Notes under the pieces: model-generated
Seen by the model: only the letters and a program-made list of their open reading frames with translations
Told to the model about the DNA's origin: nothing
Database searches by the model: none
Program-made: the position numbers and the translations under genes
DNA from: Oikopleura dioica
Taxonomy: Eukaryota; Animalia; Chordata
Direction of reading: 5' to 3'
NCBI GenBank assembly: GCA_907165135.1
Contig: OU015568.1
Location: forward strand, 15,263,208 to 15,327,207
DNA: 64,000 bases
Shown: positions 16,461 to 53,856 of the stretch, piece by piece
Layout: each line of letters opens with the position of its first letter
How positions within the stretch are numbered: the first letter of the stretch is position 1

Positions 16461-16490
16461 TTAAGTTCAGAAAATAATGGAATGAACCGT

Positions 16491-16797: not shown

Positions 16798-16798
16798 T

Positions 16799-37057: not shown

Positions 37058-37067
37058 GGCCCAGGTT

Positions 37068-40000
37068 ATGAACGTCAGACGAGGACGGCCGGATCACTGT
37101 ACAACTCTCCTCGTACGAACTGACGTAAAATTACGATCCGAGCGACGGTATCCAGTAGTGGTCAAAAACATTCTCACTCTCTTGGATACCGGCGCGAGCC
37201 TCAGCTGTGCCAGCCTTGATTTCGCGAAAAATCTGGAGGCACAGGGGTTCCCACTCAATAAGGAGAAGCCTATCCGTAGCAACCCGATGGCAGCGAAAGG
37301 GGCGCGAATGGAAATAGCATTCGACCTTGTATTGGATATAATCTTGCGAGGAGATCCTGATATCAGATTCCCTGGAACTCGCATAAGCATCATCCCGGGT
37401 CTAAGAGCTGAGCTCATTCTCGGAGTGGACAGTTTGCTTAACAAGACCATCCAATTGCAGAGAAGGACCGTTAAAATAAATGGGCAGACTTTCCCGCTTG
37501 CCTGCCCGGAAAACACCGTCCTACTGCGCGTTATCGAAGCCGGAAAGGGACAGGGAATGAATTTCCTGCGGGTTGATACAGGCCCACGAAAAGTGCACAA
37601 GGCATCAAAGCGACTTCTCCTTACATTGGATCCTGAATTTTCGCCCGGAGTCCCAGGAGTGGCTATGATTATCAACTCAAGCGAGTTGGAAACTGAGTTG
37701 ATGATCACGTACCCGGGTCCTGCGACTCCCGTCCCTAAGATATTCCTGGCCAGAATTGACGAGGTACAGGATGACCCTAATGAAGACTCACCGAAGAAAC
37801 TCACTCTCCAAGACATCGAGAAAATGACATCGAAAACAGAGCTTAGCGAAGATGGAATCGAGCGATTGAAGGAAATTCTAAAACAACATTCTGAAGCATT
37901 CTCGAAAGAAAAGACAGACGTTGGACTATATCAAGGACCGGAAGTCAAGCTCCAGCTTCTCGACCCCAGGCTCCCTGGAGCATGGGTTCGGCCAAGAAGA
38001 ATACCTTTCAGCCAAGTGGAATGGTTGAAAGCTGAGCTAAAGAAGATGGAAGAGGCGGGGATCATCGAAAGATCTACCGGAAGTAGCTTCAACGCGCCAC
38101 TCCAACTGGTAAAGAAGGCGAGCGGGGGCTATCGCATCTGCGTTGACATGAGAGCTCTTAACAACAGGCTCGCTGAAAGCAAATGGCCCCTTCCGTCCCT
38201 TGCCGAGACGTTGGAAAGCTTGTCGGGGTCTGCCTTCTTCTCCTGCGTGGATATAAGACAAGCCTTTTTCCATATGGCGCTGGAAGAAGAAAGCAAGCCG
38301 CTTACTGCGTTCTCAGCTCTCAATTCGCAATACCAGTTCAGACGGTTACCCATGGGTCTCAAGATCTCGCCGAGCGTCTACCAAATGGCAATGAAAGCCA
38401 CTCTGGGAGACGATCTGGGTAACCGTGTGGTCGCCTATCTTGACGACGTCCTCGTGTGTGGGAAAAACGAAGAAGAGCACCTCCAGACACTCGACCTCGT
38501 CCTTGCGAGACTTAAGAAAGCGGGGTTCCTGTTGAATCCAGACAAGTGCATCCTTGGAGCAAAGAAGATAACGTTTTTGGGGCACGAAGTAACACCAAGC
38601 GGCTATTTTCCAAAGACAGACAATCTTGCGGCCATACGAGAGTTTCCAGTACCGACCAACAAGAAGGCGCTTCGAAGGTTTATCGGGATGTGTTCGTTTT
38701 ACAGCACACTCGTTCCTAATCTTCAACGAAAACTAGCCCCGCTTCATGAAATCAGCGGGCCAAAAGCAACCTTCAATTGGACAAGCTCGCAAGAAGACGC
38801 GTTTCACCTCATCAAAAGGCTTATGGTGGCTCAAACTGGGCTAGCCTTTCCATCGAATGACCCAAAAGCTGTCTTGTTAGTCACATCAGACGCCAGTGAA
38901 ACGGGTTTCGGCGGAATGATAAGTCAGAAAATAGGAGATGAGGAAGAACAGCCCTTGGGCTACACTAGCGGATTCTTTCGAGGTCCTCAAGTGCGGTGGG
39001 CCATAAACGAAAAGGAACTTTATGCTTTCATTAAAACTCTTGAAACATTCCATCACTTCGTTTATGGGAGATCATTCCGATGGCGGACGGACAGTAAATG
39101 CCTGTCTTTCATTTGCGCGGAAACAAATGGCAAGCAAACCAGAAGACCATCTGCCAAGAAACTCCGCTGGCTGGAAAAATTAACAGAATACGATTTTAGC
39201 ATCACTCACTGCGAAGGGACAAGCCTCGAAATGAGTGTCGCTGACTGTCTTTCCCGGATTGATCCCCCAAACTTGGTAATGCACATCGACTCGGAAATTC
39301 AGAAGAAGTATAGGATGCTGAACCGACCAATCCCGACCTGGATAAAACTTAAAGGAATCACGAAGTCTGAGCTTCGCTTGGCCCAGGACAACGATGGAGA
39401 CTTGGTCAATTTTCGTAATGGATGGAAACCGCTGAAAGCCAAATATAGACTCAAGGAGCGAAGCGATGGAATACTTGTTTATGATCACAAGGATAAACCC
39501 CGGATTCCAATCCCGCAAGAACTCCAAGACAGGATTATATTAAGCTTTCACCTCCCACACCACGGAAGAACAACCAACCTGGTCCACGCGATGAGGGACG
39601 CGGATATCATCTTCCCAAAAATGGCAAAGAAGATAAAAACCAAGGTACAAACGTGCCCAGCGTGCCTCGCAACCGGAACGACCGAGAACCCAAAGCATCG
39701 ACAAGTGACGGCGCCAAAAGAGATGCATCCGAACATGACCGTAACCATCGACCTTTTGGGTCCTTTACCGACAAGTCCAACTAGAAAGAAGTATATCCTC
39801 GCGGCCGTAGACAATCTCACTCGTTGGATTGAGTTGAGGTGCATAGTCGACAAGACAGCCGAGCACGTTGCAAAAGCCCTTCTCGATATATTTTTTCTAA
39901 GAGGCCCCCCAAGGGCCGTATCTTGTGATTTCGGTCGAGAATTTAACAACGTGCTCTTAACAGAACTATTAACATCGTTCGGCACAGCAGTCAACCATGG

Positions 40001-40607
40001 CACCCCTTACCGACCACAAGGACAAGGACTCATTGAACGAGCAAATCGCGAGATTCTTAAACACCTAAAATCGCTCGACATCGACGAACACCGATGGGAC
40101 ACTTACATTCCATCTATACAGTTATCGATGAATTTAACTTACCACTCGGCACTCGGAACGAGTCCCTTCCAAGCAATGCACGGATGGCTGCTCGCCGAGC
40201 CACTTTTCTCAAGACAAATCAACGGAGAAGAGCTCCCTCGGAACGTCAGACTCTGGGTCAAAGAGTCAAGTTCCCGAATGTGCGCAGCCTTATCACTGTT
40301 AACAGCGAGACAAGCTGTGCCTCTCATGGAACTACCGGACGAAAATCAACCCGATGGACTTGAAAAGGGGACCCCCGTCCTTCTGAAAAAAATGAAGCCT
40401 CCAGGAGTGAGCTCCAAATTATTTAACGCCTGGAAGGATGGCTTCGTCGTGAGAAAACGACTTGATCATAATACTTATTTAGTTACTCCCGTCGAATCTC
40501 CTAGGCGGCGCTTCCTAGTCCATCGCTCCCGTATACGGCGATTGGGCAGGCCTCTTGAGGAAGCACCACCGGAAAAACACGTATATACGGTAATCAGTCG
40601 AGAATAA
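37068..40607 (+). CDS. pol: Pol polyprotein PR-RT-RNaseH-IN (Ty3/gypsy order); possibly extended to 40818 by a 43-bp intron
   Basis: LLDTGAS (protease), VDMRALN and YLDD (RT), TSDAS/EKEL/TDS/ADCLSR (RNase H), H-x-x-H-H...CPAC, D-D-E (IDLLGP, SCDFG, LIERAN) and GPY/F-like WKDGFVV. The ORF is uninterrupted. Confidence 0.97.
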   Translation: MNVRRGRPDHCTTLLVRTDVKLRSERRYPVVVKNILTLLDTGASLSCASLDFAKNLEAQGFPLNKEKPIRSNPMAAKGARMEIAFDLVLDIILRGDPDIRFPGTRISIIPGLRAELILGVDSLLNKTIQLQRRTVKINGQTFPLACPENTVLLRVIEAGKGQGMNFLRVDTGPRKVHKASKRLLLTLDPEFSPGVPGVAMIINSSELETELMITYPGPATPVPKIFLARIDEVQDDPNEDSPKKLTLQDIEKMTSKTELSEDGIERLKEILKQHSEAFSKEKTDVGLYQGPEVKLQLLDPRLPGAWVRPRRIPFSQVEWLKAELKKMEEAGIIERSTGSSFNAPLQLVKKASGGYRICVDMRALNNRLAESKWPLPSLAETLESLSGSAFFSCVDIRQAFFHMALEEESKPLTAFSALNSQYQFRRLPMGLKISPSVYQMAMKATLGDDLGNRVVAYLDDVLVCGKNEEEHLQTLDLVLARLKKAGFLLNPDKCILGAKKITFLGHEVTPSGYFPKTDNLAAIREFPVPTNKKALRRFIGMCSFYSTLVPNLQRKLAPLHEISGPKATFNWTSSQEDAFHLIKRLMVAQTGLAFPSNDPKAVLLVTSDASETGFGGMISQKIGDEEEQPLGYTSGFFRGPQVRWAINEKELYAFIKTLETFHHFVYGRSFRWRTDSKCLSFICAETNGKQTRRPSAKKLRWLEKLTEYDFSITHCEGTSLEMSVADCLSRIDPPNLVMHIDSEIQKKYRMLNRPIPTWIKLKGITKSELRLAQDNDGDLVNFRNGWKPLKAKYRLKERSDGILVYDHKDKPRIPIPQELQDRIILSFHLPHHGRTTNLVHAMRDADIIFPKMAKKIKTKVQTCPACLATGTTENPKHRQVTAPKEMHPNMTVTIDLLGPLPTSPTRKKYILAAVDNLTRWIELRCIVDKTAEHVAKALLDIFFLRGPPRAVSCDFGREFNNVLLTELLTSFGTAVNHGTPYRPQGQGLIERANREILKHLKSLDIDEHRWDTYIPSIQLSMNLTYHSALGTSPFQAMHGWLLAEPLFSRQINGEELPRNVRLWVKESSSRMCAALSLLTARQAVPLMELPDENQPDGLEKGTPVLLKKMKPPGVSSKLFNAWKDGFVVRKRLDHNTYLVTPVESPRRRFLVHRSRIRRLGRPLEEAPPEKHVYTVISRE

Positions 40608-41013
40608 ATATCCAATCATGATTGTTGCCTAGGAGGAGAATAAGTCAAGCAAAACAAGGAGCGTGCAACCAGTAGAAGAGCTTCCCAATAGCAGCAAAAC
40701 CGAGAACACGGCGACAAACCCGCTTGGAAACGAAAACGGAAAATATGACACGACTGAGCAAGCGAGGCCGCGGAGAACAAAGGGACGCGATAAAAACTTC
40801 TACAAGAAATTCTTCTGAGGGTACCGGCCAACAGGGAGACAAGAGCCTCCTCAAAAATAAGAAGGTACCACAATTCGAAGCAGACGAATCCTCAGAAGTC
40901 GACGGGAAAGAGATTTTTCTTGCGAAATCTGTCAGTTCTAAATTTTTTCACTGGAAATCTGCGATTAAACCCTTAGTCATAAGGTGATATAATCAGGAAT
41001 TATATTTAGACTG

Positions 41014-41385
41014 ATGACATCAACTAATAACGAAATAATGAAAATCTGCCCATCAATAACGATACCCAAATGCCCCGATCCACCAGAAATCGGAGTAAAA
41101 ATGAACTGCGTGAGCAAAGCGAACGCGGGACTCAACAGTACAACTAAGGAGAAATCCTCCACTAGCTTCGAGGTAGGAGGTAGCTCACTTATAGGAAATT
41201 TTATTTCATTCCTATTTTCTTTCGTCGCGGGACTTATAACCAGTCGCATCTTCAGCAGACTCCGCGGCCGGAAGAAACGAAGAGAAAACCTTTTTGCAAA
41301 GCGGAACTTCTGCTTAAACCCAAGCAACCAACGACAGGAAGACGTGCAGGTATCCCAAGAATGCCAGCAAATAGAATTCATCTAG
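41014..41385 (+). CDS. Small single-pass membrane protein (123 aa): Cys/Pro ectodomain, TM, polybasic RLRGRKKRR
   Basis: TM LIGNFISFLFSFVAGLITSRIF; acceptor atttag 4 nt upstream. Confidence 0.7.
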   Translation: MTSTNNEIMKICPSITIPKCPDPPEIGVKMNCVSKANAGLNSTTKEKSSTSFEVGGSSLIGNFISFLFSFVAGLITSRIFSRLRGRKKRRENLFAKRNFCLNPSNQRQEDVQVSQECQQIEFI

Positions 41386-41546
41386 ACATATGCCCAATAT
41401 GTCTCGACAATAAAATTGTGCCAAAAATTCTCTGTTGCACGCATAGCTACTGTCAGGGCTGTATCGATTACTGGTTCCTGACCCAAATGGAAAACTGCCC
41501 CTTGTGTAGACGTTCTATAACATGGGCGGAAATGATGGCGAAATAA
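41361..41546 (+). CDS. Minimal C3HC4 RING protein (61 aa)
   Basis: CPIC-x11-CTHSYCQGC...CPLC. Confidence 0.75.
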   Translation: MPANRIHLDICPICLDNKIVPKILCCTHSYCQGCIDYWFLTQMENCPLCRRSITWAEMMAK

Positions 41547-41649
41547 TGAACTCACTTTAGGAAGATCCCTTCTTGAGCAAACAAGGCTTAATGATCCAGA
41601 AATTGGATTTCTTCGTGCAAGCAGAAAAACAGTCACAGAAACCGACCGG

Positions 41650-42321
41650 ATGATTCGGGAAATCGTTAACCGAATAATCCAAAAATCACCACCATCGGAA
41701 GCGACTAAAAGGAAAATCTACGACGCTCTATGGAAAAAGCTCCAGACAGCAAAAGAGGCAAAGGAACAAACCATTGTCAAAAGGATTCGACAAATGACTG
41801 CAACAACCGCTGCGCACAAAAAAGGAAGGATCCTACATTTGGATATCCTTGAGTACCTTGAAGGAAGCGACCTAGTACCACACTGGCACAAAAACATCGA
41901 CAGATGGGCAACCGCGATGAGATACATCGACGAACTGGAAAATCATTATAAGAGCAGCACGCCATTATATCAGCGTGACCAACGAAATATCAAAAGTTTA
42001 CGCAAACAGACAAGCCGAGTCATCAGCGACCAAATACGGCGTGGCTTCCGACAGCCTCCTCAGATATCTTGGGAAAAGCTCTTTGAAAAAACTGAAAGCA
42101 CTACAAAGATCGAGAGGAAGCCACTTCTCGAAAGTATCGAACAAGCGACCGGCAAAATAGGAAAGAAGACAAGCGTAGTCTTGGAGATTGCTTTTCACTC
42201 TGTGCTACTGTACAATTTCATAAAAGCCTGCCTTCAAACAGTAGCAGTAGGATGGCAGGTTGTTTACGTGCCCATACGAGAAATCACAAGATATATTGTA
42301 TCACAACATCAGATGGACTGA
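41650..42321 (+). CDS. Element cargo, hypothetical 223 aa, hydrophobic C-terminus
   Basis: Long basic helical ORF in the sense cluster. Confidence 0.65.
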   Translation: MIREIVNRIIQKSPPSEATKRKIYDALWKKLQTAKEAKEQTIVKRIRQMTATTAAHKKGRILHLDILEYLEGSDLVPHWHKNIDRWATAMRYIDELENHYKSSTPLYQRDQRNIKSLRKQTSRVISDQIRRGFRQPPQISWEKLFEKTESTTKIERKPLLESIEQATGKIGKKTSVVLEIAFHSVLLYNFIKACLQTVAVGWQVVYVPIREITRYIVSQHQMD

Positions 42322-42362
42322 CAGACAAATCGTGAAAGATGATAAACAAATAGTTTAGACCA

Positions 42363-42509
42363 ATGACATCCATGGAAGAGATTCGGGAATACGTCTACGG
42401 GGCCTATGAGTACTCAAGGGATCTAAATACTATCGTGGTTATTATCTTATTTGCCCTGTACGCTATCGACTTTGGACTTAAATCTCTGTCCAAGGAAAAA
42501 CAAAACTGA
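42363..42509 (+). CDS. 48-aa micropeptide, copy 1
   Basis: MTSMEEIREYVYGAYEYSRDLNTIVVIILFALYAIDFGLKSLSKEKQN; acceptor gtttag 4 nt upstream; paralog at 42589. Confidence 0.7.
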   Translation: MTSMEEIREYVYGAYEYSRDLNTIVVIILFALYAIDFGLKSLSKEKQN

Positions 42510-42588
42510 AACCTCATCCAAACCAACCCCCAGGGGGAGGGGGGAAATCAACTACCCATCGACGCTCACGGAAACCTACTTCAGAAAA

Positions 42589-42735
42589 ATGACCTCGATG
42601 AGCCTTGCCAAGAGATACCTTGAACGGGCGTCGGAATACCTGAAGATGGCGAGAGAAACAACATTTCACATCCTTATCGTTCTGCATGCCATCAAATTCG
42701 GATTGAGACTGCTAACTAAACCCAAACAAAACTAA
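42589..42735 (+). CDS. 48-aa micropeptide, copy 2
   Basis: MTSMSLAKRYLERASEYLKMARETTFHILIVLHAIKFGLRLLTKPKQN; acceptor cttcag 4 nt upstream; same length and same MTSM/AIxFGL/KQN frame as copy 1. Confidence 0.7.
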   Translation: MTSMSLAKRYLERASEYLKMARETTFHILIVLHAIKFGLRLLTKPKQN

Positions 42736-42821
42736 CCCGTCTGGAAACTAGCCTAGCTAGTCACAGAAAAAAAAAATATTATATCGCACTCAGCCCATAG
42801 CCAATCGATTCCTTAAGACCT

Positions 42822-43187
42822 ATGGGCGGAAAAAATTCGGCGTGCAAAACCCCCTGTCCCGAACCGATCTGCCCCGTCAAACACACCATAAGATGGGATA
42901 TGGCTTGGGAAATGACGCGGAACAAAATCAAAGAAACAAGTGCATGGCCGTATCTTACATCTATTATGATAGGAACAATCATCACACTTGTAGTCAAAGT
43001 ATACACGAACCGACGAGAAGAAAAGTATCAGCCTTCCGAAACGGCATCGAGAATTATCCTCGACACCCAAAATATTGCTGATTGGACACAAACGGCAGCA
43101 ACGACAGGCTCTAAACACAATTCTGCTATAAGAAACGATAAAACTTGTACTGTTAGGAATAATCTCGAAAGAGTAACCCATCTCTAA
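42822..43187 (+). CDS. Small single-pass membrane protein (121 aa), N-myristoylation consensus MGGKNS, Cys/Pro ectodomain
   Basis: CKTPCPEPICP, TM WPYLTSIMIGTIITLVVKVY. Confidence 0.7.
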   Translation: MGGKNSACKTPCPEPICPVKHTIRWDMAWEMTRNKIKETSAWPYLTSIMIGTIITLVVKVYTNRREEKYQPSETASRIILDTQNIADWTQTAATTGSKHNSAIRNDKTCTVRNNLERVTHL

Positions 43188-43247
43188 GGTAGATCCGAAC
43201 CCAAGAAATAACCAGTTGTGCTTAAGACAAGCCACTATTTCAACAAA

Positions 43248-43757
43248 ATGTCGGCAAGATCTACACAAACAGTAAGCAACAATGCTTGCGACGAATTCGA
43301 AGAGATGATCGTTTGGACCATCATGGACAATGACACAAGCCATTTTGACGAAAAGGAACTCGTTGAGAAAATCGGATGGACTGGATTCCGGGAAGCCATA
43401 AAAGAAGCAACCGAGGACGCAAAAACTTACCAACAATGGTTAAAAACCACCGTTGCAACGTGGACCCGAGTTCCTCAGGAAATAAAAAGCACACTTAAGG
43501 ACTTTGCTCATGATAATTCTAGGCAAGGACTTTTCGACTGGACTTACGAGCTTATACTCTATGGATCCGCACTGCACTCCACGACTACTGACAGAGGGGT
43601 GTTAAACGAATGGCAAAACGCAGTATACGGAGATTTTGTTGAAAAATTCGGAAATCCTCCTTACATAGCATTTACCGAGCGCCAACGACTTCCGGAAAAA
43701 GAAGAGATAAATATTGCACGTAAAACGTGCTTGCTGCGCTTAACCTCAGAAATATGA
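43248..43757 (+). CDS. Element cargo, hypothetical 169 aa
   Basis: ATG after acceptor tgcttaag; Trp-rich globular-looking ORF. Confidence 0.65.
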   Translation: MSARSTQTVSNNACDEFEEMIVWTIMDNDTSHFDEKELVEKIGWTGFREAIKEATEDAKTYQQWLKTTVATWTRVPQEIKSTLKDFAHDNSRQGLFDWTYELILYGSALHSTTTDRGVLNEWQNAVYGDFVEKFGNPPYIAFTERQRLPEKEEINIARKTCLLRLTSEI

Positions 43758-43831
43758 ATCATAAAAACCCCAAGTAGAGTTAACCTCAAGTCTTTATTTG
43801 AGTAGATTGATAGCACTAACTTCCGTTTAGA

Positions 43832-44047
43832 ATGGCCCCAAATACTTGCAAACCAACGAATTGTCCCTCAACCGAATGTTCCGAAGCCGTAGAAAAACTT
43901 GATTTACCGGGGACCGTCTATCTAGCGGACACGATAAGCAAAATCCTATTTTCAATCATATACATTTTGCTTGGAATCGTCGGCTGGATGTGCGTGCATG
44001 CTCTCTTCAAGTACTTTAAAAATAGTCAAGAAAAAAAGACAGAATGA
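43832..44047 (+). CDS. Small single-pass membrane protein (71 aa), Cys/Pro N-terminus
   Basis: CKPTNCPSTEC, TM ILFSIIYILLGIVGWMCVHALF; upstream cactaac branch point + ttccgtttag. Confidence 0.7.
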   Translation: MAPNTCKPTNCPSTECSEAVEKLDLPGTVYLADTISKILFSIIYILLGIVGWMCVHALFKYFKNSQEKKTE

Positions 44048-44136
44048 GTTTATTAAATCCTGTTTACCCTTATGGAACTGCTCGGACAACGAAAAAAACC
44101 AATGAATGTGTAAGAAAATAAACGAACTTCCTTTAG

Positions 44137-44919
44137 ATGGAAGAAGGAAACACCACTCAGCAAGCAAGTCGGGAAAACGAAAAGCAAAACCGGCACTATC
44201 CGCGGCTACACATTGAGTATCCATGTGGCAACAGGAAGATATGTCCCGCAACGAGTGACGATCCGATGGAAAATCTGAGGAATGCGATTTTTGAAGCATG
44301 CCCCGCTAAGCCCGGAGAAGAGTTGCGAAATAAAATCAAGATTTTTCACAAAGGGTCCGAAGTCAAACGAAAGGAAGAATTAAAAGGTCTGAAACCTGGA
44401 GAAACAATCCACGCCACTTGGCCTGGGGAACTCGGCCCAAATACTACTCCCGCGCAACAAACTAGGCAGATCCCAAAAATCATCGATGCCGCCTCCATCC
44501 AAAGACAAAATTTCGAATCATCCCTTAGAAACACGTTGAGAAACCAGCCACCTCAAAAACGAAAACTCGAGGAAGAAAGCGAGGTTCAAGCAGAGCAAGC
44601 AACACATCGACAGATCGGCTGTCTGCTAACAAAACTTGGAAGCGATCTTATCCAGTGGTCAAGCCCCTTACATGACCTAAGTAACCTGTTACAAGCAGAT
44701 GAAATCTTACGACACGACCCCGAAAAAGCAGACAAAACAAACAAAGCCATTCTTAACAATTACACGAACATGACGTACCTGAGTCAGCTCCTAGTAAACC
44801 TTCAACGAATCCTGTCCCCGACGACACTCAAGTCACCAGAGACCTTATCCGAAGCACCGTATCTGAACACAATGCACCCAGCCTTTGAACTGTCTCCTAG
44901 CTTCAACAATTTCCTTTAA
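44137..44919 (+). CDS. Ubiquitin-like-domain protein, BAG6/Scythe-like (260 aa)
   Basis: UBL pattern LHIEY..G.RK...DDPMENLRNAI...IKIFHKG...L..GETIH, followed by a helical block (IGCLLTKLG...PLHDLSNLLQ) resembling the BAG6 conserved region. Confidence 0.5.
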   Translation: MEEGNTTQQASRENEKQNRHYPRLHIEYPCGNRKICPATSDDPMENLRNAIFEACPAKPGEELRNKIKIFHKGSEVKRKEELKGLKPGETIHATWPGELGPNTTPAQQTRQIPKIIDAASIQRQNFESSLRNTLRNQPPQKRKLEEESEVQAEQATHRQIGCLLTKLGSDLIQWSSPLHDLSNLLQADEILRHDPEKADKTNKAILNNYTNMTYLSQLLVNLQRILSPTTLKSPETLSEAPYLNTMHPAFELSPSFNNFL

Positions 44920-44953
44920 TAAAAGACGTGAATAGGTAACAGGCTCCCTTCAG

Positions 44954-45487
44954 ATGCGGTACAGATGCGCTTATTGCAACACTCAATGGGCGTCCATAAA
45001 TTTCGAAGACGGCTGTAGAAATTGCAATAGCGATTTCATCGAAATAATCAATGATCGAGCCAGCACACGAGATTCAAATACAAACTGGACCACCCTGGGA
45101 CAAATCAAGTGGACTCTGACGATAGAGAAAAGGCACTGGGAGAAGCTTAAGTCCTTAAACACCGACCTGGTAAAGAGCAAACAGAAAAAATAGAGCGGCT
45201 TAATGAATCACGTATTTAAGATGATGCGATTCCGCATTCCGACGCCCTCCTCGCCCAAAGAGAAGCTAAGAACCGAAAAGGAAGGCGGTAAGGACTTTCC
45301 CGTGGACAAGCAACGCCAAAAGGAAGTGGACATCTGCGCAATATGCCAGGAAGGACTCTTCAACAACCTTGCTTGCCTACGTTGTAATCATGTTTTTCAT
45401 CAAGGTTGTATTCGCAAGTGGTTAAACCAACCACGCTGCTCGCGCTGTCCGTACTGCAACCAAACAGTCCCACTGCGTTTCTTCTAA
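44954..45487 (+). CDS. RNF126/RNF115-like E3 ligase A: Zn ribbon + RING-H2 (intron 45170-45220; 160 aa)
   Basis: YRCAYC...CRNCNSDFIEII (cf. CPRCESGFIEEL); CAIC...CNHVFHQGC..W...CPYC. A 51-bp GT-AG intron joins them in frame. Confidence 0.75.
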
Positions 45488-45546
45488 CCACGAATTATAA
45501 GAAGCTAAAGAGCAAATTGAGTAATTGTTCCTTCTTTTAAGAACAA

Positions 45547-46104
45547 ATGGAACAGGCAAAAATTGACAATATTATCATTGGAACAGCGGAAGACGCGATC
45601 AAGCTTTCCTCCTTCCAAGAAATTATCGTACGAGAAATCCTGGGGAAACCGAAGTTGATTGGTTTCAATGCTGAAGAAGAATGGCAGCGTCCCCTGAGAG
45701 ACGCCGTTCATTTGGTAAACCAGAAAGCCGAACTATGGCTAAGATCCCAAACTTGGCAGGAACAAGCAACAATAGCGAAACTGCCGAGACAACGACTAGC
45801 GACAACAACTTTGTCTTCCACCAAGGACCTCGCACTGCTGATCGCATTCCGAACTATGCAAAGAAAGTTGAAAAGCCCTTGGCAAAAAGAAGGTTTTGAT
45901 CGCGCGATCATCAAAGAAATTGGGAGCATCAATGTTCAAGAACCAGCGGTCGCCAAGGAATTCGCTCGCGACGTAAACACGGGAATAGAATCGATTCCGG
46001 CAATCATCGAAGAGGCGTACACAAAAATAAAAAATGAAGAATCACTGGAAGATACCCGAAAAAAACCTGTTAAACCTGCATGTCTGACACTTTCCCAGCG
46101 ATAA
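45547..46104 (+). CDS. Element cargo family X, copy 2 (185 aa, intronless)
   Basis: IKLSSFQEIIVREILGKP / EEWQRPLRDAV / STKDLALLIAFRTMQR align with copy 1 (34337). Confidence 0.8.
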   Translation: MEQAKIDNIIIGTAEDAIKLSSFQEIIVREILGKPKLIGFNAEEEWQRPLRDAVHLVNQKAELWLRSQTWQEQATIAKLPRQRLATTTLSSTKDLALLIAFRTMQRKLKSPWQKEGFDRAIIKEIGSINVQEPAVAKEFARDVNTGIESIPAIIEEAYTKIKNEESLEDTRKKPVKPACLTLSQR

Positions 46105-46202
46105 GAGAAAAGCTGGATAATACTTCCCCGAACTCATTTCCTTCCGTCTTAAACAAGTCAACGTCTTTTAGAAAGCATTTGCTGACAAAAAGTAATTTAA
46201 GA

Positions 46203-46694
46203 ATGAAGCAAACCGGAGGAAATTACATCCTCTCCCTTGTCATGAATCAACCAACTGCAATGCCCAAAGAGGAGCTCGCCGCGAAGGGACTTGACCGTGG
46301 TAGAGCATTCGGGGAAGGATGCGGAGGAACTCAAGACAAATTCCTCGGTAGCAAAATTGGGATCGACGCTATGATAGAGGCAGTGAAGCAAACCCTCGAA
46401 GAATTGTCCGAGGGTCGAGACCTGCCTGCAGAACAAGGAGGACTTCTAATGGGAACCGCGATAGGCTTTATGAAAAGCCACGGTCACTCACCTCTTCACG
46501 AGGAAGGCTATCGAAAAATAGTGCAAGTCGTGTTTCCTCGATTGGCAAACGTACAAACACCGGCTTACTGGAGCCCTAAAACAATATTCGCACACCTGTA
46601 CTTCAATCTCATGATGAGACGACAGAAACTACCCAGACAGGGCGTAGGCGCGGAGCCACCGAAGGTAAGCTTGCAAGATGTGTCCCGAAATTAA
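46203..46694 (+). CDS. Element cargo, hypothetical 163 aa
   Basis: ATG after acceptor aatttaag. Confidence 0.6.
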   Translation: MKQTGGNYILSLVMNQPTAMPKEELAAKGLDRGRAFGEGCGGTQDKFLGSKIGIDAMIEAVKQTLEELSEGRDLPAEQGGLLMGTAIGFMKSHGHSPLHEEGYRKIVQVVFPRLANVQTPAYWSPKTIFAHLYFNLMMRRQKLPRQGVGAEPPKVSLQDVSRN

Positions 46695-46715
46695 ACAATC
46701 TAGAAAATCGCCCGA

Positions 46716-46901
46716 ATGGATCCGTCTGTAGCAATTCCGGGACCAACAACTCAGACAACACAAATTTTCCCCGGGCAACACACCACTCAAATCCAGCCGA
46801 CAACAAGGGAACAACCAATCCAGATGCCAACGGAGAATCTCATCGGAGACGGAAACGTAGACAAATTCTTCGAAACAGTCTTCCCACCTGCCTTTCAATA
46901 A
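46716..46901 (+). CDS. Small Pro/Thr/Gln-rich ORF (61 aa)
   Basis: Sense ORF filling the gap between cargo genes. Confidence 0.4.
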   Translation: MDPSVAIPGPTTQTTQIFPGQHTTQIQPTTREQPIQMPTENLIGDGNVDKFFETVFPPAFQ

Positions 46902-47038
46902 CCCTGAACCATATGTATTTCCGGGCTAACCATCCCCCTCCTACAACCATACCCAACAACCACATCTGAAAACACCAATCGATTATAAGGAATTATCACT
47001 GAAAACCGGAATTAATAAGATTTCTTTCAAGATTGAAA

Positions 47039-47700
47039 ATGAGCTCCCCAAGAGATTCGAACCTAGCTCCAAAAACCGAGCCGGAAATAAAGGTAAATAA
47101 ACAAAATGATAAGAGCTAATCTTCCCTAAGGAGGAATCCGTTCATCTCGAGCTACTCAAATCCTACAAGCACCTCCTTCCGAACCAAATCTACAATTATG
47201 CCAAACTTGTCGTTAAACGAGTAATGACAACTGACCCAAAGCTTTCCCCAAAAGGCATCGTGACCAGCGCAGTTTATTTGGCGTACAAATTTTCGCCAGA
47301 GCCAAAAACAACAACAGCCATCGGAGAAATGCTGAAATGCCCAAATTGGATGATTTACAAAACCGCACCGTTAGTACGGACACGATTCAACAAGGAGACC
47401 AAAAACGAGCTAGAGATTGCAAGAAAATACATCGATCAACAAGCTCATCTCGCTGATTCGGATTGGATCACTCGGGCAAGACAAATAGCCGACCATGCCT
47501 GGCACCCCAACATCAAAGCGAGCCCGAAAAGAATTGCTGCATCATCCGCGTACTTAGCATACAAATTTTCGCCAACACCAATGTCGGCGAGGAAAGTAGC
47601 ACAGCAATGGAACTTCTCCACAGCGCAAATTCTGGCAACAGCCCAAACCATTCAGAAGCATCTCAAAATAGTCTGTTTTATTACCGCCCGGCGGGAGTAG
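47039..47700 (+). CDS. TFIIB-core-like (two cyclin-fold repeats, no Zn ribbon); intron 47093-47130; 207 aa
   Basis: Repeats GIVTSAVYLAYKF and RIAASSAYLAYKF. A 38-bp intron (GTAAAT...gctaat...ccctaag) supplies an in-frame ATG exon. Confidence 0.7.
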
Positions 47701-47749
47701 ACTGCTTGAACAATCAGAGTTACCGATCTTAACCTGAACCCGATTTCAG

Positions 47750-48524
47750 ATGGCTAGCTTTCGCTGCTTAGGTTGTAACCTGAATTGCGAGGAGATTCGA
47801 AAACCCTGGAATTGCCCGAATTGCAACAGTAAGTTCATCGATCTAATAGGAAAATGGAAAAAAGAAGACGTGGTAGACAAGACCGGTTACAACAATGGAG
47901 AGATTCTCTTCAAAATCGTTGCAAACCACGAGAGGGCAATCAGCCAAATCAAACACTTGATGGAACTTAGTAACTGTCGAACCTCTGCACATGTAAGTGC
48001 CCTAGATGGTTGGGAAAAAGTAAAAAATTAATCAGGGTGAAACAAATGAAAACGCCCAAACACCGGGGCCTACTCCATCAACGGAACCACCGAAAGACCC
48101 AACAGGCAGAAAGACGTCCGGGCTTTTAGAAGAAAAGAACAGTTTCAAAAAGGCACCGACTTCTGTTAACCTTGAAGGACGGAATCAATTGAAAATGAGA
48201 CCACAGCCAAGGGTAGGAGAAATAGAAGGTATTCGGGGACAGTGCCAAGGAAGATACCTCATACCAAATGGGAAGCGTAGACATAAACAAAAAACAATTG
48301 AAGAAATTGGGACTCGCGAATATGAAAGACGCGAGGACACACTTCGACATTCCACCATGCATGAGACTCTTGAATACCCTTGCGGCATCTGCATGGAAGA
48401 ATTCGCGGCCAAGTGCTGTTCATTCCTCCCCTCGTGCGGGCACACTTTCCACACTCACTGCATCCTAAAATGGCTTCTCCACAAAAATACCTGTCCAATT
48501 TGCCAGGAAATCATAGCAAAATAA
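47750..48524 (+). CDS. RNF126/RNF115-like E3 ligase B: Zn ribbon + RING-H2 (intron 47993-48035; 243 aa)
   Basis: FRCLGC...CPNCNSKFIDLI; CGIC...CGHTFHTHC..W...CPIC. A 43-bp GTAAGT...CAG intron joins them in frame. Confidence 0.8.
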
Positions 48525-48576
48525 AATAATAATAAGAAAAAGATAACTCTGACACTCTTAACTTACCCTGTTAAGT

Positions 48577-49421
48577 ATGGACGAGAACCAAGAGGAAGCA
48601 GCACAAACTGAAAACGAAGAATCACCGCATAATTCAAGGCAGAAGGAACAAACACTGCCATGTTTCTTGGAAGAAATAATGACACCACCGAAGAAAATAG
48701 GGCGCCTAGAAGTAATCAACCCAGATGGAACAAGAACTTTGCAACAATTCGTTGAAGGAGGAGCCACGTGCGAGGAACTGCAAGCACTCTTAGACTCACT
48801 TTCACGCATTGAATTGACAGAATGGGAAAAAGAGGTAGGCGACCCCTGCCGCATTTGCCTGGAAGAATTTGACAAAACAGCAAACCTTATACCCACCTGT
48901 GGACACTTCTTTCACCAACATTGTCTACGAAACTGGCTCATATGGAAGGATTCTTGCCCACTATGCATCTTACCGGTAAACGAGAACAGATTGAACATGA
49001 CCCGAAAATACTTTAGGTTAAGCCGAAAGGAACCATCCCAATAACAATTAAGGATTGGCTGGAAAAGAAACATAAAGTTAAGTACGAATCGTTGCTCGAT
49101 GCGGTAAATATACTTGAAAAGAAGGAAGAATATGACAACATCAACTCACATTTCCGCCTCGAACCGGACGGATCGCTCATTGAAATAAAAATCATCTTCA
49201 GGAAAGTCGAAGGCGAAGAATTGGAGGAAAGGCTCATGCTGACAAAGAAAATCAAGATAAGCGCAGTAGAAAAGTACGAAAGTGATTGCGGGCTCTGCCA
49301 GGAAGACCTGCCTGAAGACATATCGGTCATGACATGCTGTTACGCCTACTACCATAATGCGTGCCTGCGAAAATGGCTAGCAAACAGACCTTACTGCAAG
49401 TACTGCAACACCCCCCTATAA
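48577..49421 (+). CDS. Tandem double-RING protein (intron 48976-49016; 267 aa)
   Basis: RING-H2 CRIC...CGHFFHQHC..W...CPLC and a second RING CGLC...CCYAYYHNAC..W...CKYC. A 41-bp GT-AG intron joins the ORFs in frame. Confidence 0.75.
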
Positions 49422-49481
49422 GATTGAAGTTGCAACAGATTCAGAAACCACCTAAATTAAAATATACCAAAGGATAGCACT

Positions 49482-50351
49482 ATGATGTTTAGAATGCTCT
49501 CCACAAACACATTTCAGCTCTACGTATGGCTTCCTACCGAAAACATTTTTTTCGAGAACCATGTCTCGAGGAACCAACAAGGATTCCGGGACGCACGGAA
49601 AGCAGGGCTCTCCGACGAACAATTGACAAGTCTCTTTCTCATAACACTGACACCAGAACAAAGGAGTTACGAGACTCTCCTCGACGAAATTGAGAAAACA
49701 AATTTTGATCTATGCGTAGATCGGATGAGGAAGATTCTTACCACGAACCTGGTATACGATCGAGACTTGCCATACCTCGACGCCAAGGAAAAATTCCGGC
49801 TCTATGTATGGGGACCAAACGAAAAAATCAGCTTCGCACAACATGTGGCAAGAAACAGACAAGGGTTCAACAGCGCAAGAAAATGTGGGCTTCTAGATGT
49901 TGATCTCACTCGTCTTTTGTTTATGACTCTCAGACCAGAGTTTGCACACCTCGAGAAAGGCCTAAATAGGAATGAAAAAACCAAACTCGAGCTTTGCATC
50001 GAGAGAATGAAGAAATGTATTTCAGCGAAACATCAAAACCATAATAAGGGGAATGAAGTAAACGGAAAACGCAAAGAAGGCGAAGCCCTGATCATTTTCT
50101 TCGGACGACTCTGCGCAGATCTGCAAAAGTCACCTGGCGAAGAACCACTATCAGACGCCGCGGCCCTCAGAATAATTTACCCTATTCTCCTACAGAACTG
50201 TGGCCCTGCCGAGTTCCATACCCTTGTCAAATATAAGAGCAGCGACGGAACCCAAGATTTAACCTTCAGAGCGCTTGCAGCTAAACTAGGGAACCTGCAC
50301 GTACCCTACGGTGGCATACAAACAAGACCAAGACGCGCTATTAATCGCTAG
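49482..50351 (+). CDS. Capsid paralog 2 with tandem-duplicated CA N-terminal module (289 aa)
   Basis: FQLYVW..ENI.F..HV.RN.QGF..ARK.GL.D..LT.L...TL.PE occurs twice and matches Gag FQLKNWKTEENITYWEHLTRN...GLTDSQMVSLFMLTLRPE; then RKEGEALIIFFGRL. Confidence 0.85.
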   Translation: MMFRMLSTNTFQLYVWLPTENIFFENHVSRNQQGFRDARKAGLSDEQLTSLFLITLTPEQRSYETLLDEIEKTNFDLCVDRMRKILTTNLVYDRDLPYLDAKEKFRLYVWGPNEKISFAQHVARNRQGFNSARKCGLLDVDLTRLLFMTLRPEFAHLEKGLNRNEKTKLELCIERMKKCISAKHQNHNKGNEVNGKRKEGEALIIFFGRLCADLQKSPGEEPLSDAAALRIIYPILLQNCGPAEFHTLVKYKSSDGTQDLTFRALAAKLGNLHVPYGGIQTRPRRAINR

Positions 50352-50444
50352 AATCCCTTAGCTTTAATTATAATTAAGCCCGCATTAACCGCAAGTAAAT
50401 CGGAACTGAGAGTCCAATACCGAACATTCAGATTGAAAAAGACT

Positions 50445-50657
50445 ATGCATCTCGCTCCGCAATTCTGGCATAAATGGCTCTCGTGCCTTTGCCTAGCAAC
50501 ACCAGCTGACCCGACGATTGAGGGAAGGGAGCAGGTGACCCGGAGAGTTCCTCTCCGCGACAAGATCAAACGAAAACTAGGGATAAGTAAAACCCAGAAT
50601 CGGGAGGCCCCCGAAGAAGAAATCTTGATCCCATCTGCACCTACCCGAACTCCATAA
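50445..50657 (+). CDS. Small cargo ORF (70 aa) with PSAP motif near C-terminus
   Basis: ATG after acceptor acattcag; ends LIPSAPTRTP. Confidence 0.45.
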   Translation: MHLAPQFWHKWLSCLCLATPADPTIEGREQVTRRVPLRDKIKRKLGISKTQNREAPEEEILIPSAPTRTP

Positions 50658-50703
50658 ACTCTCGAACTAAAGCCCCTCCAATCTTAAACTGTTCAGAGTC
50701 AGA

Positions 50704-51675
50704 ATGGATAAACATAAAATTATCGGAGAAAAGGCAAGTGGGCTGCTTTCTGGGCTCAATGATTTGCTCCCACACCTCGGTCCCCTCGGTAAAGTCTGGT
50801 ACGCAACTTTGCTGGTAAGAAGTATTGTCCTATTAACAGTTGGTACGGAAATTTATTCAAACGATTCAGGCGGATTCAGATGTAGCACCAAACAGCAACT
50901 GTGTAGCTCAGTTTGCTATAACCAATTTTTACCAGTCAACCTGACTAGATTTTGGACTTGGCACCTCGTCATTATTGGGATCGTCACTCTGGGGCTCGGA
51001 CATCTTATCCTGAAACCCGCAGAAGACGTACAGCTTATGCGATTACTCGAACACGACATAAACCCAAAACCGACAGAATTAATCGTCTGGCCAAATCGCC
51101 AGGACCGGCCAAGCTGGACATTTCAACTGAAGAGGCTTAATGAACTCCGCTCAAAATATGGGCATATGCAAGGCTTCAAAGAAAAATACAAAGGTAATCG
51201 CCTGGTCATCACGACACCATCAACGAACTGGAAACGAATCTTGTTCCTAACCAGTCTGTGCGTCATTGACCTTATTTTTCTAATTATGAATTTTGTGCTC
51301 CTCAAACACCAATACAACCACGAAACACCTTGGACGACCCTCCTTAAGGCAGGACAACTGTTGAAGACCCCAGCTTCATTTATCTGCAAAATTGATAAAT
51401 ACGCGATACTATCAGAAAAAGAGACGAGGAATTTCGCGGAAACTGGATATGATCCTGCTGACCCGCGTTACTTCTTCTGGAAAGCACAGCACGCATGTGC
51501 CCAATCCGAGTCCGTCTGTACTGTCGACAAATTCACGGAAAAAACGTTTATCTCCTGTACCATGATCGGTGCAACCCTAGCGGGCACTCTATTGCTAGCA
51601 ACAGGCGGACTGTTTTACCTGATTAAAATAATTCATAGAATTCTGTCAAGACAATGGAAAATCAGGCGGACGTAA
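50704..51675 (+). CDS. Connexin (gap-junction/hemichannel protein), intronless, 323 aa
   Basis: GKVW TM1; EL1 FRCST.Q..CSSVCYN...P....RFW; EL2 C...C...C with FTEKT; four TM segments; very short C-tail. Confidence 0.92.
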   Translation: MDKHKIIGEKASGLLSGLNDLLPHLGPLGKVWYATLLVRSIVLLTVGTEIYSNDSGGFRCSTKQQLCSSVCYNQFLPVNLTRFWTWHLVIIGIVTLGLGHLILKPAEDVQLMRLLEHDINPKPTELIVWPNRQDRPSWTFQLKRLNELRSKYGHMQGFKEKYKGNRLVITTPSTNWKRILFLTSLCVIDLIFLIMNFVLLKHQYNHETPWTTLLKAGQLLKTPASFICKIDKYAILSEKETRNFAETGYDPADPRYFFWKAQHACAQSESVCTVDKFTEKTFISCTMIGATLAGTLLLATGGLFYLIKIIHRILSRQWKIRRT

Positions 51676-51712
51676 AATTCGACTACCAAATTGTAACGAA
51701 ACACGCTTTAGA

Positions 51713-52622
51713 ATGTCTGCTCCAGGCTGCTCTCTTCCCGCCTTTACCTGCTCATATCATGGCCCAAAGCACATAGCCGACGAAAGGCTTGTGACAGGAG
51801 ACCTTATCTGCAAAATATGCGGACTTGTCGTAGGAGAAAGATGCCCACCACTCAACCCAGAAAAATCAATGCGAGTGACGGCCATCAAACCAAACGAAAA
51901 CTTGCCAAAAACTTTCACCCGGAATAACGAAGAAACAGGGGACGAATGCATCATATCAAACGAGGCCCAACTATCCAACCGCGAGAAAAATAGGTTACAA
52001 ACTGTCCTTCGGGAATGTGAAGACCTCATCGAAGAAGCAGGAGCCCGATTGATATACTCAGGACTCACTAATACAAAACTACGAGCTTACGAACTCATCA
52101 AAAAGCTATACCTCAAAGAAAAACAGGGAACAACTTGGTACTTCCACCGCCAAAATCGCGCAGAACCCGTGGCAATAGCGGCGTGCCTCTACCTGGCCAG
52201 TAAGCAAGAGAACTGCGACCTGAGCTTGGAAGAAATCTGCCAGGCAACTGGCACCTCTCCCCCTAATCACCCAGAGAATGATTCGCAAATTCGATACCTT
52301 CCTCAGAACAGCAAAAATCGACGCACACATTAAAAACAGAATCAAACCTTACATCCAAAGAATAGCAGCTGCGCTTCGATTAACTAATCACCAAGCGAAA
52401 GAAATCGAAGCGCATGCCATCCTGATAAGCAAAGAAACCCCATCAGCCACAACCTCAGCAAAAACGCTCGCCGCCGCCAGCACCTACGTATATATCGACC
52501 GAATAAACCGACCAAAGTCAGTCAAGGAAATAGCAAGACTTGTGAACGCGGGAACCCGGCGGCTTCAAATCTACATCGCAGAACTCCCTCGAACACTCGG
52601 AGGAAGAAGAGAAAGGGAATAG
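51713..52622 (+). CDS. TFIIB homolog (Zn ribbon + core), split by a 1-nt frameshift in a C-run near 52258
   Basis: CSYH...GDLICKICGLVVGER Zn ribbon; AIAACLYLAS...SLEEI and TLAAASTYV...KSVKEIA cyclin repeats. Deleting one C joins the two ORFs. Confidence 0.88.
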
Positions 52623-52858
52623 AAGGAAAAGGTGATTACTATATAAACGCGATGGCGCTACAAAACCAACACTAACCAATTACGTAGTTAATCCCGCTCG
52701 ATCCTGACAAACAACAACTTAAACACCCAGAATATAGTAGCTGCCACCCATTTATGTCTGTACCCATTATTTCGAACTTCAAACAAAATCTTTATGCCTT
52801 ATGAATAGCGCTCACTCCTTTAAAATAGGCCACTTTCATCCAACATCCGATTTTTAGT

Positions 52859-53479
52859 ATGTCAATCCTTAAAGAAATCCAAACGATCCAAGCCGCGTCA
52901 AACCGACGAATTGTAAAAACGCTGCTCCTCCCAAGAATGGTCGGAATCGAAATACCCATTGGAACCATGACCCTTCGTGATGAGCAGCCCGTCCAAGCCA
53001 TGTACGATTTTATCGATAAAGTCACCGCTTCCGCCATCACCTACCGGTCCATCCCGAACTTAAACTCTGACGCTTTCCTGGACGCCTTTCTGAATCAAAT
53101 CCCAAGACAAGAAACCGAGCAATGCGTTCTACTTTGGATCGCAAAAACCATCATCGTCGCCCATATGACCTTCCATGAAACCAGAGACCGACTGATCGCA
53201 TACCTCACGGATGCTTTCCAAACCAAGTATGGTCGACGTCAGATCCCATTTCGACCAATAGCATTGCCAAGAAACGAACTCCAAGACAAACTCCAAGCGA
53301 TCGAAATCCGCGTTAAAGCGGTCGCTTCTACTATCATCCTCGCCAAACGCGTGGTCAAACCCGGCTTGCCAAAAATGGAGCCAACTCCGGCTAGAAAAGG
53401 GACCAGACAACGAATGCGAAAAATCCAACGTAACAGACGAAAGTGGTCGGCATCGAGCACCAAATCCAATGAGGCTTAA
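52859..53479 (+). CDS. Last cargo gene (206 aa): candidate Rev/Rex-like RNA export adaptor (NES + Arg-rich motif)
   Basis: ELQDKLQAIEI fits the CRM1 NES spacing phi-x3-phi-x2-phi-x-phi; RKGTRQRMRKIQRNRRKW resembles the lentiviral Rev ARM. The function is inferred. Confidence 0.55.
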   Translation: MSILKEIQTIQAASNRRIVKTLLLPRMVGIEIPIGTMTLRDEQPVQAMYDFIDKVTASAITYRSIPNLNSDAFLDAFLNQIPRQETEQCVLLWIAKTIIVAHMTFHETRDRLIAYLTDAFQTKYGRRQIPFRPIALPRNELQDKLQAIEIRVKAVASTIILAKRVVKPGLPKMEPTPARKGTRQRMRKIQRNRRKWSASSTKSNEA

Positions 53480-53532
53480 CCAGTTAAAAATTTACTGTAC
53501 TTCTTTTCCTGTCTCTCTCTTCCAGATTCCCT

Positions 53533-53545
53533 AAGGAGGGTAAAG
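53533..53545 (+). other. Polypurine tract
   Basis: AAGGAGGGTAAAG directly abutting the 3' LTR. Confidence 0.8.
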
Positions 53546-53852
53546 TGTTATGATATAACTTATGTTTATGCAGCTGAGTGCCCAGGTTAGCCTGAGCATC
53601 TCGTTCCATCCTGACGATATGCCTCGTGCATAATTGATCAACCAATAAGAACCTGGATGGCTCGGGATGCAGCGTAGGATAGCCTGGGGGCTCAGCGATC
53701 AGTATATAAGGAAGACACCTTCCTTCAGATCAGTAACGTTCTCATTTCATACCATGTGCAAGACATGAAATAAAACACAAAATACGTTATACCAAAATAT
53801 GCGTTAGTTTTTATTGCAAGATTGATACACCATTGCAAGGCAGCGCATAACA
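53546..53852 (+). repeat. 3' LTR (307 bp)
   Basis: Direct repeat of 16491-16797; followed by TSD CCGT. Confidence 0.97.
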
Positions 53853-53856
53853 CCGT

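Follow-up and report, generated by a model that had tools for sequence, protein, structure and literature searches.

A stretch of 64,000 nt of the Oikopleura dioica genome (assembly GCA_907165135.1, contig OU015568.1, positions 15,263,208 to 15,327,207 of the forward strand), here called the window and used as the reference for all coordinates, contains a gene for a 260-amino acid protein with an N-terminal ubiquitin-like (UBL) domain. Its stop codon is followed after 34 nt by the ATG (44954) of a zinc-ribbon open reading frame (ORF), behind which lies a RING-H2 ORF. The original prediction, made from the sequence alone, had given the same 34-nt spacing, had treated ribbon and RING as a single gene, had described the two genes as a BAG6-like protein and an RNF126-like ligase that form a functional pair, and had assigned them to a mobile element. 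The carrier is now identified: both genes are accessory genes within a 37,362-bp, recently inserted, Ty3/gypsy-type long terminal repeat (LTR) retroelement.

The element is bounded by two LTRs of 307 nt on the plus strand (5' LTR, 16491-16797; 3' LTR, 53546-53852), which are in direct orientation, start with TG, end with CA and are 100% identical to each other. The 5' LTR includes internal TATA-like and AATAAA motifs. CCGT is found on the outer flank of each LTR and constitutes a 4-bp target-site duplication. A TGG stretch that resembles a primer-binding site begins 2 nt past the 5' LTR and is followed by a splice-donor-like site, CAG/GTATGA, with its exon end at 16831 (16799-16831, plus strand); both were read directly from the sequence and their functions are putative. 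At the other end, a polypurine tract (53533-53545) immediately precedes the 3' LTR (53533-53852 together, plus strand). The gag gene (35207-37057, plus strand) encodes a CCHC knuckle near its C-terminus (zf-CCHC, E 0.0035). It is overlapped in a different frame by pol (36579-40607, plus strand), which encodes reverse transcriptase (RVT_1, E 1.5e-29), RNase H (RT_RNaseH_2, E 2.4e-20) and integrase (rve, E 2.1e-11). The LTRs, the target-site duplication, the primer-binding site, the polypurine tract, the gag knuckle and the order reverse transcriptase, RNase H, integrase are thus all those of a Ty3/gypsy-type element; no protease family was reported in the element at E up to 0.01. The identity of the two LTRs indicates a very young insertion.

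Control RNA reads bearing the same species label show a loose end at 53852, where they continue into the last 18 nt of the Oikopleura dioica spliced leader (SL; sequence as given in PMC6883708) plus a segment of 12 nt. This segment, compared by eye, resembles 16471-16486, the left flank just past a TTCAG acceptor at 16466-16470. Reads in which the SL and the left flank are joined directly to 53853 imply that the mRNA of a related lineage resembles an empty site, and that the intervening 37,362 bp behave as a single insertion. The insertion splits a host gene 9 nt past its ATG (16482-16490 and 53853-54735; MNR/ALRTAGH...). The product of this host gene has two RING-H2 domains, and in the related-lineage reads the gene is SL-trans-spliced and uninterrupted. 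At 53531-53560, related-lineage reads match these 30 nt only (polypurine tract and LTR start) and diverge on both sides, which hints at an expressed family of related elements with the junction in common.

Elements with gag and pol, and in several cases a third (env) ORF, are known from Oikopleura as the retrovirus-like, Ty3/gypsy-type Tor elements, as described in PMC4402516 and PMC8008620. The window element, compared with these descriptions only, resembles them in its LTRs, whose near identity marks an integration in the recent past, in its gag-pol, in a target-site duplication of 4-5 bp and in the kind of host. In contrast to them, it is 37.4 kb long, has no recognisable env, and exceeds the usual coding limit of LTR elements (gag, pol and at most env) by about 30 further plus-strand ORFs, which are found on both sides of gag-pol.

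The UBL protein and its possible relation to BAG6

The UBL gene (44137-44919, plus strand, ATG to TAA) encodes a beta-grasp domain at about residues 20-98 and helices at 114-134, 157-186 and 195-226. An exhaustive search of representative proteins retrieved a 242-amino acid relative that aligns to residues 16-227 (212 amino acids) with 31% identity and an E value of 2.2e-21, indicating that the ORF is a real gene and not a chance frame. The same search gave a 265-amino acid relative (E 6.3e-4) and one spurious repeat protein, and a profile search contributed two more relatives of 264 and 235 amino acids. By these comparisons the 260-amino acid protein is a member of a small eukaryotic family, with five members including itself, among which it is the most divergent (19-29% identity to the others).

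The presence of an N-terminal ubiquitin-like beta-grasp is established by several approaches. Searched against the PDB, the profile of the five-member family matched the DSK2 UBL (6jl3_A, E 2.3e-5), 1c3t_A (1e-4) and polyubiquitin (1e-22). The Pfam ubiquitin family matches three of the five members, two of them above the cut-off (30.7 and 30.4 bits versus 25.4). An AlphaFold2 (AF2) model built from the five-sequence alignment (pLDDT 67; 61-77 over residues 20-100) places the beta-grasp at residues 24-94 in the order beta-beta-alpha-beta-beta-3(10)-beta, followed by three helices. Foldseek aligned about 77 residues of this model to ubiquitin and SUMO chains with a probability of 1.00, a TM(target) of about 0.7 and a root-mean-square deviation of 2.6-3 Å, with no match at an E value at or below 1e-3. 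In VIA, residues 17-99 gave Z scores of 7-8.2, a range that the tool rates as middling, and nearly all rows were beta-grasp UBLs. The description of the protein as a UBL plus a helical region is therefore borne out by profile search, Pfam matches of the relatives, and structure prediction and comparison. In the PDB, phmmer with the 260-amino acid ORF gave just two irrelevant matches (E of 1 or more) and the profile of alignment A1 gave none; the single-sequence AF2 model (pLDDT 39.8) was unusable. For the helical half, VIA returned matches to long helices only (BDLP and Rad50, Z 7.2), a score not above the noise level of helical models.

The protein has no C-terminal di-glycine for conjugation. 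Its UBL domain is internal, being followed by ...HATWPGELGP... and 160 more residues, and is thus to be regarded as a UBL domain and not as a conjugatable modifier. A basic residue, a hydrophobic residue and a histidine are kept at the equivalents of ubiquitin R42, I44 and H68 (K68, F70 and H92; assigned by eye in the family alignment).

Kinship with BAG6 (BAT3/Scythe) had been proposed for this protein. The N-terminal part of BAG6 is mapped in PMC11734626 as a UBL (17-92), a BUILD domain (126-184), which recognises hydrophobic clients, and DUF3538/PF12057 (276-392); the same source describes BAG6 Domain I as co-precipitating hydrophobic model substrates. In the window protein, too, a helical region comes after an N-terminal UBL, and sub-threshold matches to PF12057 were obtained for two of the five family members, P0005 (E 0.026, 14.8 bits) and P0003 (E 0.11, 12.8 bits). 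Both matches fall on one and the same part, the C-terminal helix and the tail, at profile positions 19-85 and 24-83, respectively. Among the 30 matches listed by a protein-language atlas, the top score was 0.85 and the ten best Pfam-bearing matches were all of the ubiquitin family; BAG6 clusters stood at ranks 7, 10, 19 and 20 with scores of 0.77-0.81, which are leads only by the calibration of the tool.

A number of results weigh against this kinship. Taken alone, the window protein has no Pfam match even at E 10, so that the DUF3538 comparison suggested in the original prediction turned out negative for the ORF itself, and in none of the family members does PF12057 reach its curated cut-off of 25 bits. 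No BAG6 was found among longer proteins (465-2000 amino acids) at E up to 0.1, evidence that the tool rates as weak. The BAG6 UBL is absent from the best 60 of 326 PDB profile matches, and in VIA the BAT3/BAG6 UBL 4dwf_A (Z 7.2) ties with dozens of others, so the window UBL is no closer to that of BAG6 than to other UBLs. BAG6 is a large multidomain protein of about 1,100 amino acids, in which a proline-rich middle part precedes a BAG-like domain at the C-terminus; the window protein, which has neither, is encoded by a retroelement, has 260 residues, and, like all five family members, lacks PF02179 (BAG) at E up to 1. Kinship with the BAG6 N-terminus is considered possible from these comparisons, at a little short of an even chance.

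The absence of PF02179 from the whole family also bears on the idea that the protein is a co-chaperone of the BAG1 type, in which a UBL is joined to a three-helix BAG domain that binds Hsp70. A length of 260 residues and the succession of a UBL and three long helices would suit such a protein, and one structure row of the atlas belongs to a UBL-plus-BAG cluster; its TM of 0.37 is below 0.5, however, and the plant BAG1 chain 4hwi_B aligns in VIA over the UBL only (residues 21-98). A BAG1-type identity is highly improbable.

The zinc ribbon and RING-H2 units

The ribbon ORF (44954-45193, plus strand) encodes 79 amino acids with Cys5, Cys8, Cys21 and Cys24, and ends with a TAG at 45191-45193. The RING-H2 ORF (45203-45487, plus strand; 94 amino acids) shares its frame and matches zf-RING_2 with an E value of 6.5e-08 (33.2 bits versus a cut-off of 27.3). 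A second unit of the same composition (47750-48524, plus strand) consists of ribbon ORF 47750-48031 and a frame for a RING-H2 that is open over 48022-48524 (zf-RING_2, E 8.3e-12, 45.6 bits); its RING ORF has an ATG at 48189/48195, ends at 48524, and is in a different frame from the ribbon ORF. The two ribbon ORFs are paralogous (43% identity over 30 amino acids, E 1.3e-4), and the RINGs form one family in a comparison within the window. The claim of a zinc ribbon-RING-H2 gene with a second copy at 47750 is correct as to the C4 ribbons, the RING-H2 domains and their paralogy; as genes, both units are split into two ORFs, the first by a TAG within one frame and the second by a change of frame.

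RNF126 is the protein with which the units had been compared. According to PMC4872217, its zinc finger has the ligands C13, C16, C29 and C32 and contacts BAG6 through H14, Y27, F36, E38 and E39. In the same source, the H14A variant has a Kd for BAG6 above 50 uM versus 0.4 uM for the wild type, a more than 100-fold loss of affinity, and the N-terminal zinc finger of RNF126/RNF115 is described as binding the UBLs of BAG6 and UBL4A. The ribbon is at the extreme N-terminus and has the ligand spacing of RNF126, C-x2-C-x12-C-x2-C, in both ORF 44954 (C5/C8/C21/C24) and ORF 47750 (C6/C9/C22/C25). An aromatic residue (Y in ORF 44954) stands two positions before the first Cys, an S-x-F-I-E/D motif is found past the last Cys (S26, F28, I29 and E30 of ORF 44954 are equivalent to S34, F36, I37 and E38 of RNF126), and the RING-H2 is at the C-terminus. 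On the other hand, the joined ribbon-RING protein would have about 160 amino acids and not about 310, with an in-frame stop or a candidate intron between ribbon and RING.

Other observations argue against a specific relationship to RNF126. ORF 44954 keeps two of the five BAG6 contacts (F28 and E30), H14, Y27 and E39 being replaced by A6, D19 and I31. ORF 47750 has L7, W20, F29, D31 and L32 at these positions, one identical and two conservative. The critical His14 is thus Ala in one ribbon and Leu in the other. The comparison with zinc_ribbon_9 (PF14369) proposed in the original prediction gave no match at E up to 10, and the RNF126 zinc finger (PDB 2N9O/2N9P) was not found by phmmer or by a two-sequence profile against the PDB (20 matches, E up to 10), where the shortness of the domain makes sensitivity low. 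The atlas recognises generic rubredoxin-like ribbons only. In PDB searches with the RINGs, the RNF126 RING (2ect_A) had E values of 3.2e-5 (rank 10 of 69) for the first unit and 1.5e-6 (rank 11 of 78) for the second, and the best matches were synoviolin, RNF13 and AMFR for the first, and EL5, RNF38 and RLIM for the second. The RING-H2 assignment is solid but generic, being no closer to RNF126 than to many RING-H2 ligases. The resemblance of the ribbon to that of RNF126 is real at the level of the motif and does not extend to an HMM or profile match. A protein combining the zinc ribbon and the RING-H2 is likely to be a ubiquitin ligase.

Whether each unit encodes one protein or two is best considered together with the layout of the ORF starts. 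The sequence TT[ACT]AG ends at most 10 nt upstream of the ATG in 17 of 33 ORF starts of the element, versus 15 of the 306 other ATGs of the same stretch (Fisher p 1.6e-11), and a stricter form of the acceptor motif precedes 11 of 33 versus 22 of 306. The motifs were picked after inspection of the data, so the p-values are optimistic. TT[CT]AG directly abuts the ATG of the UBL ORF (TTTAG), of ribbon ORF 44954 (TTCAG) and of ribbon ORF 47750. The host is described as having operons and SL trans-splicing (PMC6883708; bioRxiv 10.64898/2025.12.04.692336). In combination with the acceptor motifs, this suggests that the array may be read as a polycistron that is resolved at these motifs. Over 34000-53500, no coverage was seen in three oligo-dT RNA runs that bear the same species label. 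They come from a diverged lineage, perhaps one without the insertion, as a control with flanking host exons illustrates (mostly 90-95% likeness; 59 of 67, 6 of 9, 22 of 35 and 41 of 61 reads), and their silence over the element is therefore uninformative on expression or splicing.

In the first unit, a candidate intron of 51 nt (45170-45220, plus strand; CTG/GTAAAG ... TATTTAAG/ATG) contains the in-frame TAG and preserves the frame. In the second, a candidate intron of 43 nt (47993-48035, plus strand; CAT/GTAAGT ... TTAATCAG/GGT) links the ribbon to the RING frame, which is open from 48022, 58 codons ahead of its first ATG. Median introns of the host are given as 48-51 nt in Table 2 of PMC8008620. 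The 51-nt candidate is preferred since the alternative, a 24-nt intron at 45170-45193, is far below this length and was rejected. An alternative genetic code for TAG was also rejected, as TAG ends seven other ORFs in 29,000-56,000, six of them within the element. When 33 junctions of adjacent ORFs were scanned for frame-joining intervals of 35-70 nt of the form GTAA[AG]..AG, candidates were found at five: both ribbon-to-RING junctions and three of the 31 others. The latter three (39-47 nt; 46665-46703, 48976-49016/49022 and 51672-51711) raise the prospect that some neighbouring ORFs there may be exons of one gene.

Alternatively, the ribbon (79 amino acids) and the RING (94 amino acids) could be separate small proteins, as could those of the second unit, translated either from one transcript, with re-initiation after termination, or from mRNAs of their own. 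This would agree with the in-frame TAG followed 9 nt later by an ATG, and with the second RING ORF having its own ATG in a different frame; the frame-joining candidates at three of the 31 other junctions weaken the case for introns. It is opposed by the good donors (GTAAAG and GTAAGT) and host-typical intron lengths at both junctions, by the 58 open codons upstream of the second RING ATG, and by the absence of the acceptor motif in front of either RING ORF (45203 and that of the second unit). On these sequence features a spliced ribbon-RING protein is somewhat favoured, and separate proteins are the less probable arrangement.

Further cargo of the element

About 33 ORFs, all on the plus strand, extend from about 29,977 to 53,479, and the AT skew over 30-54 kb is 0.16-0.31. 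The in-frame TAG between ribbon and RING might be a disabling mutation and the ORFs decaying, non-functional passengers, and the divergence of the UBL protein from its relatives and its want of a Pfam match could be read in the same way. Against such decay stand the identical LTRs of a very young insertion, the intact and densely packed state of the ORFs with their strong strand skew, the occurrence of the ribbon/RING split in both paralogous units, and the conservation of residues across 212 amino acids in the relative at E 2.2e-21. Decay is accordingly thought very unlikely.

A C3HC4 RING ORF of 61 amino acids (41361-41546, plus strand; zf-C3HC4, E 1.2e-08) and two more RING-H2 ORFs on the plus strand (48577-49421; 48577-49044, zf-RING_2, E 2.7e-12, and 49092-49421, E 6.9e-07), which are paralogous to the other RINGs, accompany the two ribbon-RING units. 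Of the roughly 24 gene units that follow pol, five are thus RING-bearing, four being RING-H2 paralogues and one C3HC4.

Other cargo is varied. An intact gene for CKS (cyclin-dependent kinase regulatory subunit; Cks1/Suc1-type) lies upstream of gag (31677-31985, plus strand; PF01111, E 1.9e-26, 92.4 bits). An ORF of 323 amino acids belongs to the connexin family (50704-51675, plus strand; Pfam Connexin, E 2.6e-18, 67.1 bits); a gap-junction gene aboard a mobile element is unusual. Two additional ORFs, at 30761-31519 and 49482-50351, are derived from gag and are paralogous and capsid-like, one being 47% identical to gag residues 302-477 and the other containing two tandem copies of the same capsid-like segment. 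Sub-threshold matches to TFIIB repeats or the TFIIB zinc ribbon (E 0.002-0.005) occur in ORFs 47224-47700 and 51713-52333, which on this basis may encode transcription factors of the element. Further pairs of paralogues are 34337-34696 and 45547-46104 (39% identity), and 42363-42509 and 42589-42735 (44%), the latter encoding 48-amino acid products with a hydrophobic C-terminal segment.

The first part of the element, 16798-29900, is a low-GC internal region of 13 kb (GC 0.34-0.39, AT skew about 0.1) without recognisable element genes, either cargo or nested DNA. It includes a degenerate Ras-like exon (29666-29911; Ras PF00071, E 1.3e-05) and, at 25020-25226, tandem repeats of 41 nt. Two ORFs on the minus strand (24117-24446 and 25672-26175) resemble each other in their C-terminal tails. 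Outside the insertion, host genes upstream (3180-12027) encode a glucosidase II beta-like protein, a cytosolic carboxypeptidase and a cyclophilin, and the cyclin-box exon of a host cyclin gene lies downstream (55431-55616).

A predicted ubiquitin-ligase toolkit and its significance

Does the UBL protein act together with the ribbon-RING protein encoded next to it? The UBL gene is present as a single copy in the window, and the adjacency is thus observed once. By a simple calculation of our own, a RING-bearing unit would adjoin the UBL gene by chance in about 40% of arrangements, and a ribbon-RING unit in about 17%. With RINGs in five of about 24 units, adjacency is weak evidence for pairing. 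Ahead of the second ribbon-RING unit stands a TFIIB-like ORF rather than a UBL gene. A complex prediction with UBL residues 18-100, zinc-ribbon residues 1-45 and Zn (score 0.03, with the fold of the partner uncertain and alignments not used) gave no answer and weighs neither for nor against binding. Searches for further loci of the UBL gene retrieved none in viral contigs and one in metagenome contigs (L001, 1,489 nt), where it stands alone without informative neighbours, and the contigs of the relatives (0.6-9.7 kb) are too short for synteny. From the sequences, a functional pair is a reasonable hypothesis, with odds on the low side.

The genes may instead be independent cargo. The RING-H2 proteins would then act alone as E3 ligases, in the manner of many viral RINGs, the UBL protein would have an unrelated role, for instance as a proteasome shuttle or chaperone cofactor, and their adjacency would be accidental. 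The density of RING genes, the TFIIB-like neighbour of the second unit, the single UBL gene and the loss of the key His14 of RNF126 are all in line with this. It is less easily reconciled with the ribbon, whose exact ligand spacing and S-x-F-I-E motif are those of the sole zinc finger with known binding to UBLs of the BAG6/UBL4A type, or with the UBL, in which the R42/I44/H68-type positions of ubiquitin are retained. Independent cargo is a tentative alternative, roughly half as probable as not.

The explanation considered best, with a probability of about 50%, is that the UBL and ribbon-RING genes are accessory genes of the young Ty3/gypsy-type element and, by prediction, part of a ubiquitin-ligase toolkit that the element encodes. 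A long plus-strand transcript would serve for the expression of each unit, by way of the acceptor motif just before its ATG, used either in SL trans-splicing, as in host operons, or in cis-splicing from the CAG/GTATGA donor behind the primer-binding site. Removal of the 51-nt intron, together with the TAG, would join ribbon and RING into one E3 ligase of about 160 amino acids, and removal of the 43-nt intron would do the same in the paralogue at 47750. The UBL protein would be a non-conjugatable adaptor, comparable to a miniature BAG6 N-terminus, that may bring bound clients, or itself, to the proteasome or to at least one RING-H2 ligase of the element. By these means the element might redirect ubiquitin-dependent degradation in the host, for example against restriction factors or against hydrophobic proteins that the element itself makes in surplus. 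That the UBL binds the zinc ribbon next to it directly is proposed as a hypothesis only. A more elaborate version, in which an operon-style array includes a protein-triage module of its own, with a mini-BAG6 (UBL and client-binding helices) handing substrates to RNF126-like ligases beside captured CKS, connexin and TFIIB-like genes, is unlikely to be correct in full. The original prediction is, as a whole, partly supported: its BAG6 likeness survives as sub-threshold matches of two relatives and language-model leads, and its RNF126 likeness as ligand spacing and an F-I-E/D motif.

Large DNA viruses encode RING E3 ligases, such as those with the ICP0-type RING of herpesviruses, and the RING domain of equine herpesvirus-1 (1chc_A) is among the PDB matches of the window RINGs. 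The window element resembles these viruses as a mobile genome with RING ligases of its own, which presumably redirect host ubiquitination. It differs in that the carrier is a reverse-transcribing LTR element, and in having five RING units and an accompanying UBL protein.

The context of the element is more surprising than the proposed pair. Packaging and reverse transcription are believed to restrict LTR retroelements, like retroviruses, to few genes. Among the papers listed by full-text literature searches, which did not cover paywalled journals, none describes an accessory gene array of this kind in an LTR retroelement. An intact, very young copy of 37 kb with about 30 accessory ORFs would stretch the few-gene limit, and the array would illustrate the way in which cargo can build up in a retroelement when its host has operons and trans-splicing. 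If the triage-module reading were true, the element would have the largest coding repertoire known among reverse-transcribing elements and would be the first with an adaptor-ligase pair. If the UBL and ribbon-RING proteins do cooperate, they would represent the BAG6-RNF126 triage step in a minimal, portable form, in which the recruitment of an E3 ligase by a UBL could usefully be dissected, and would give insight into the manipulation of host proteostasis by mobile elements.

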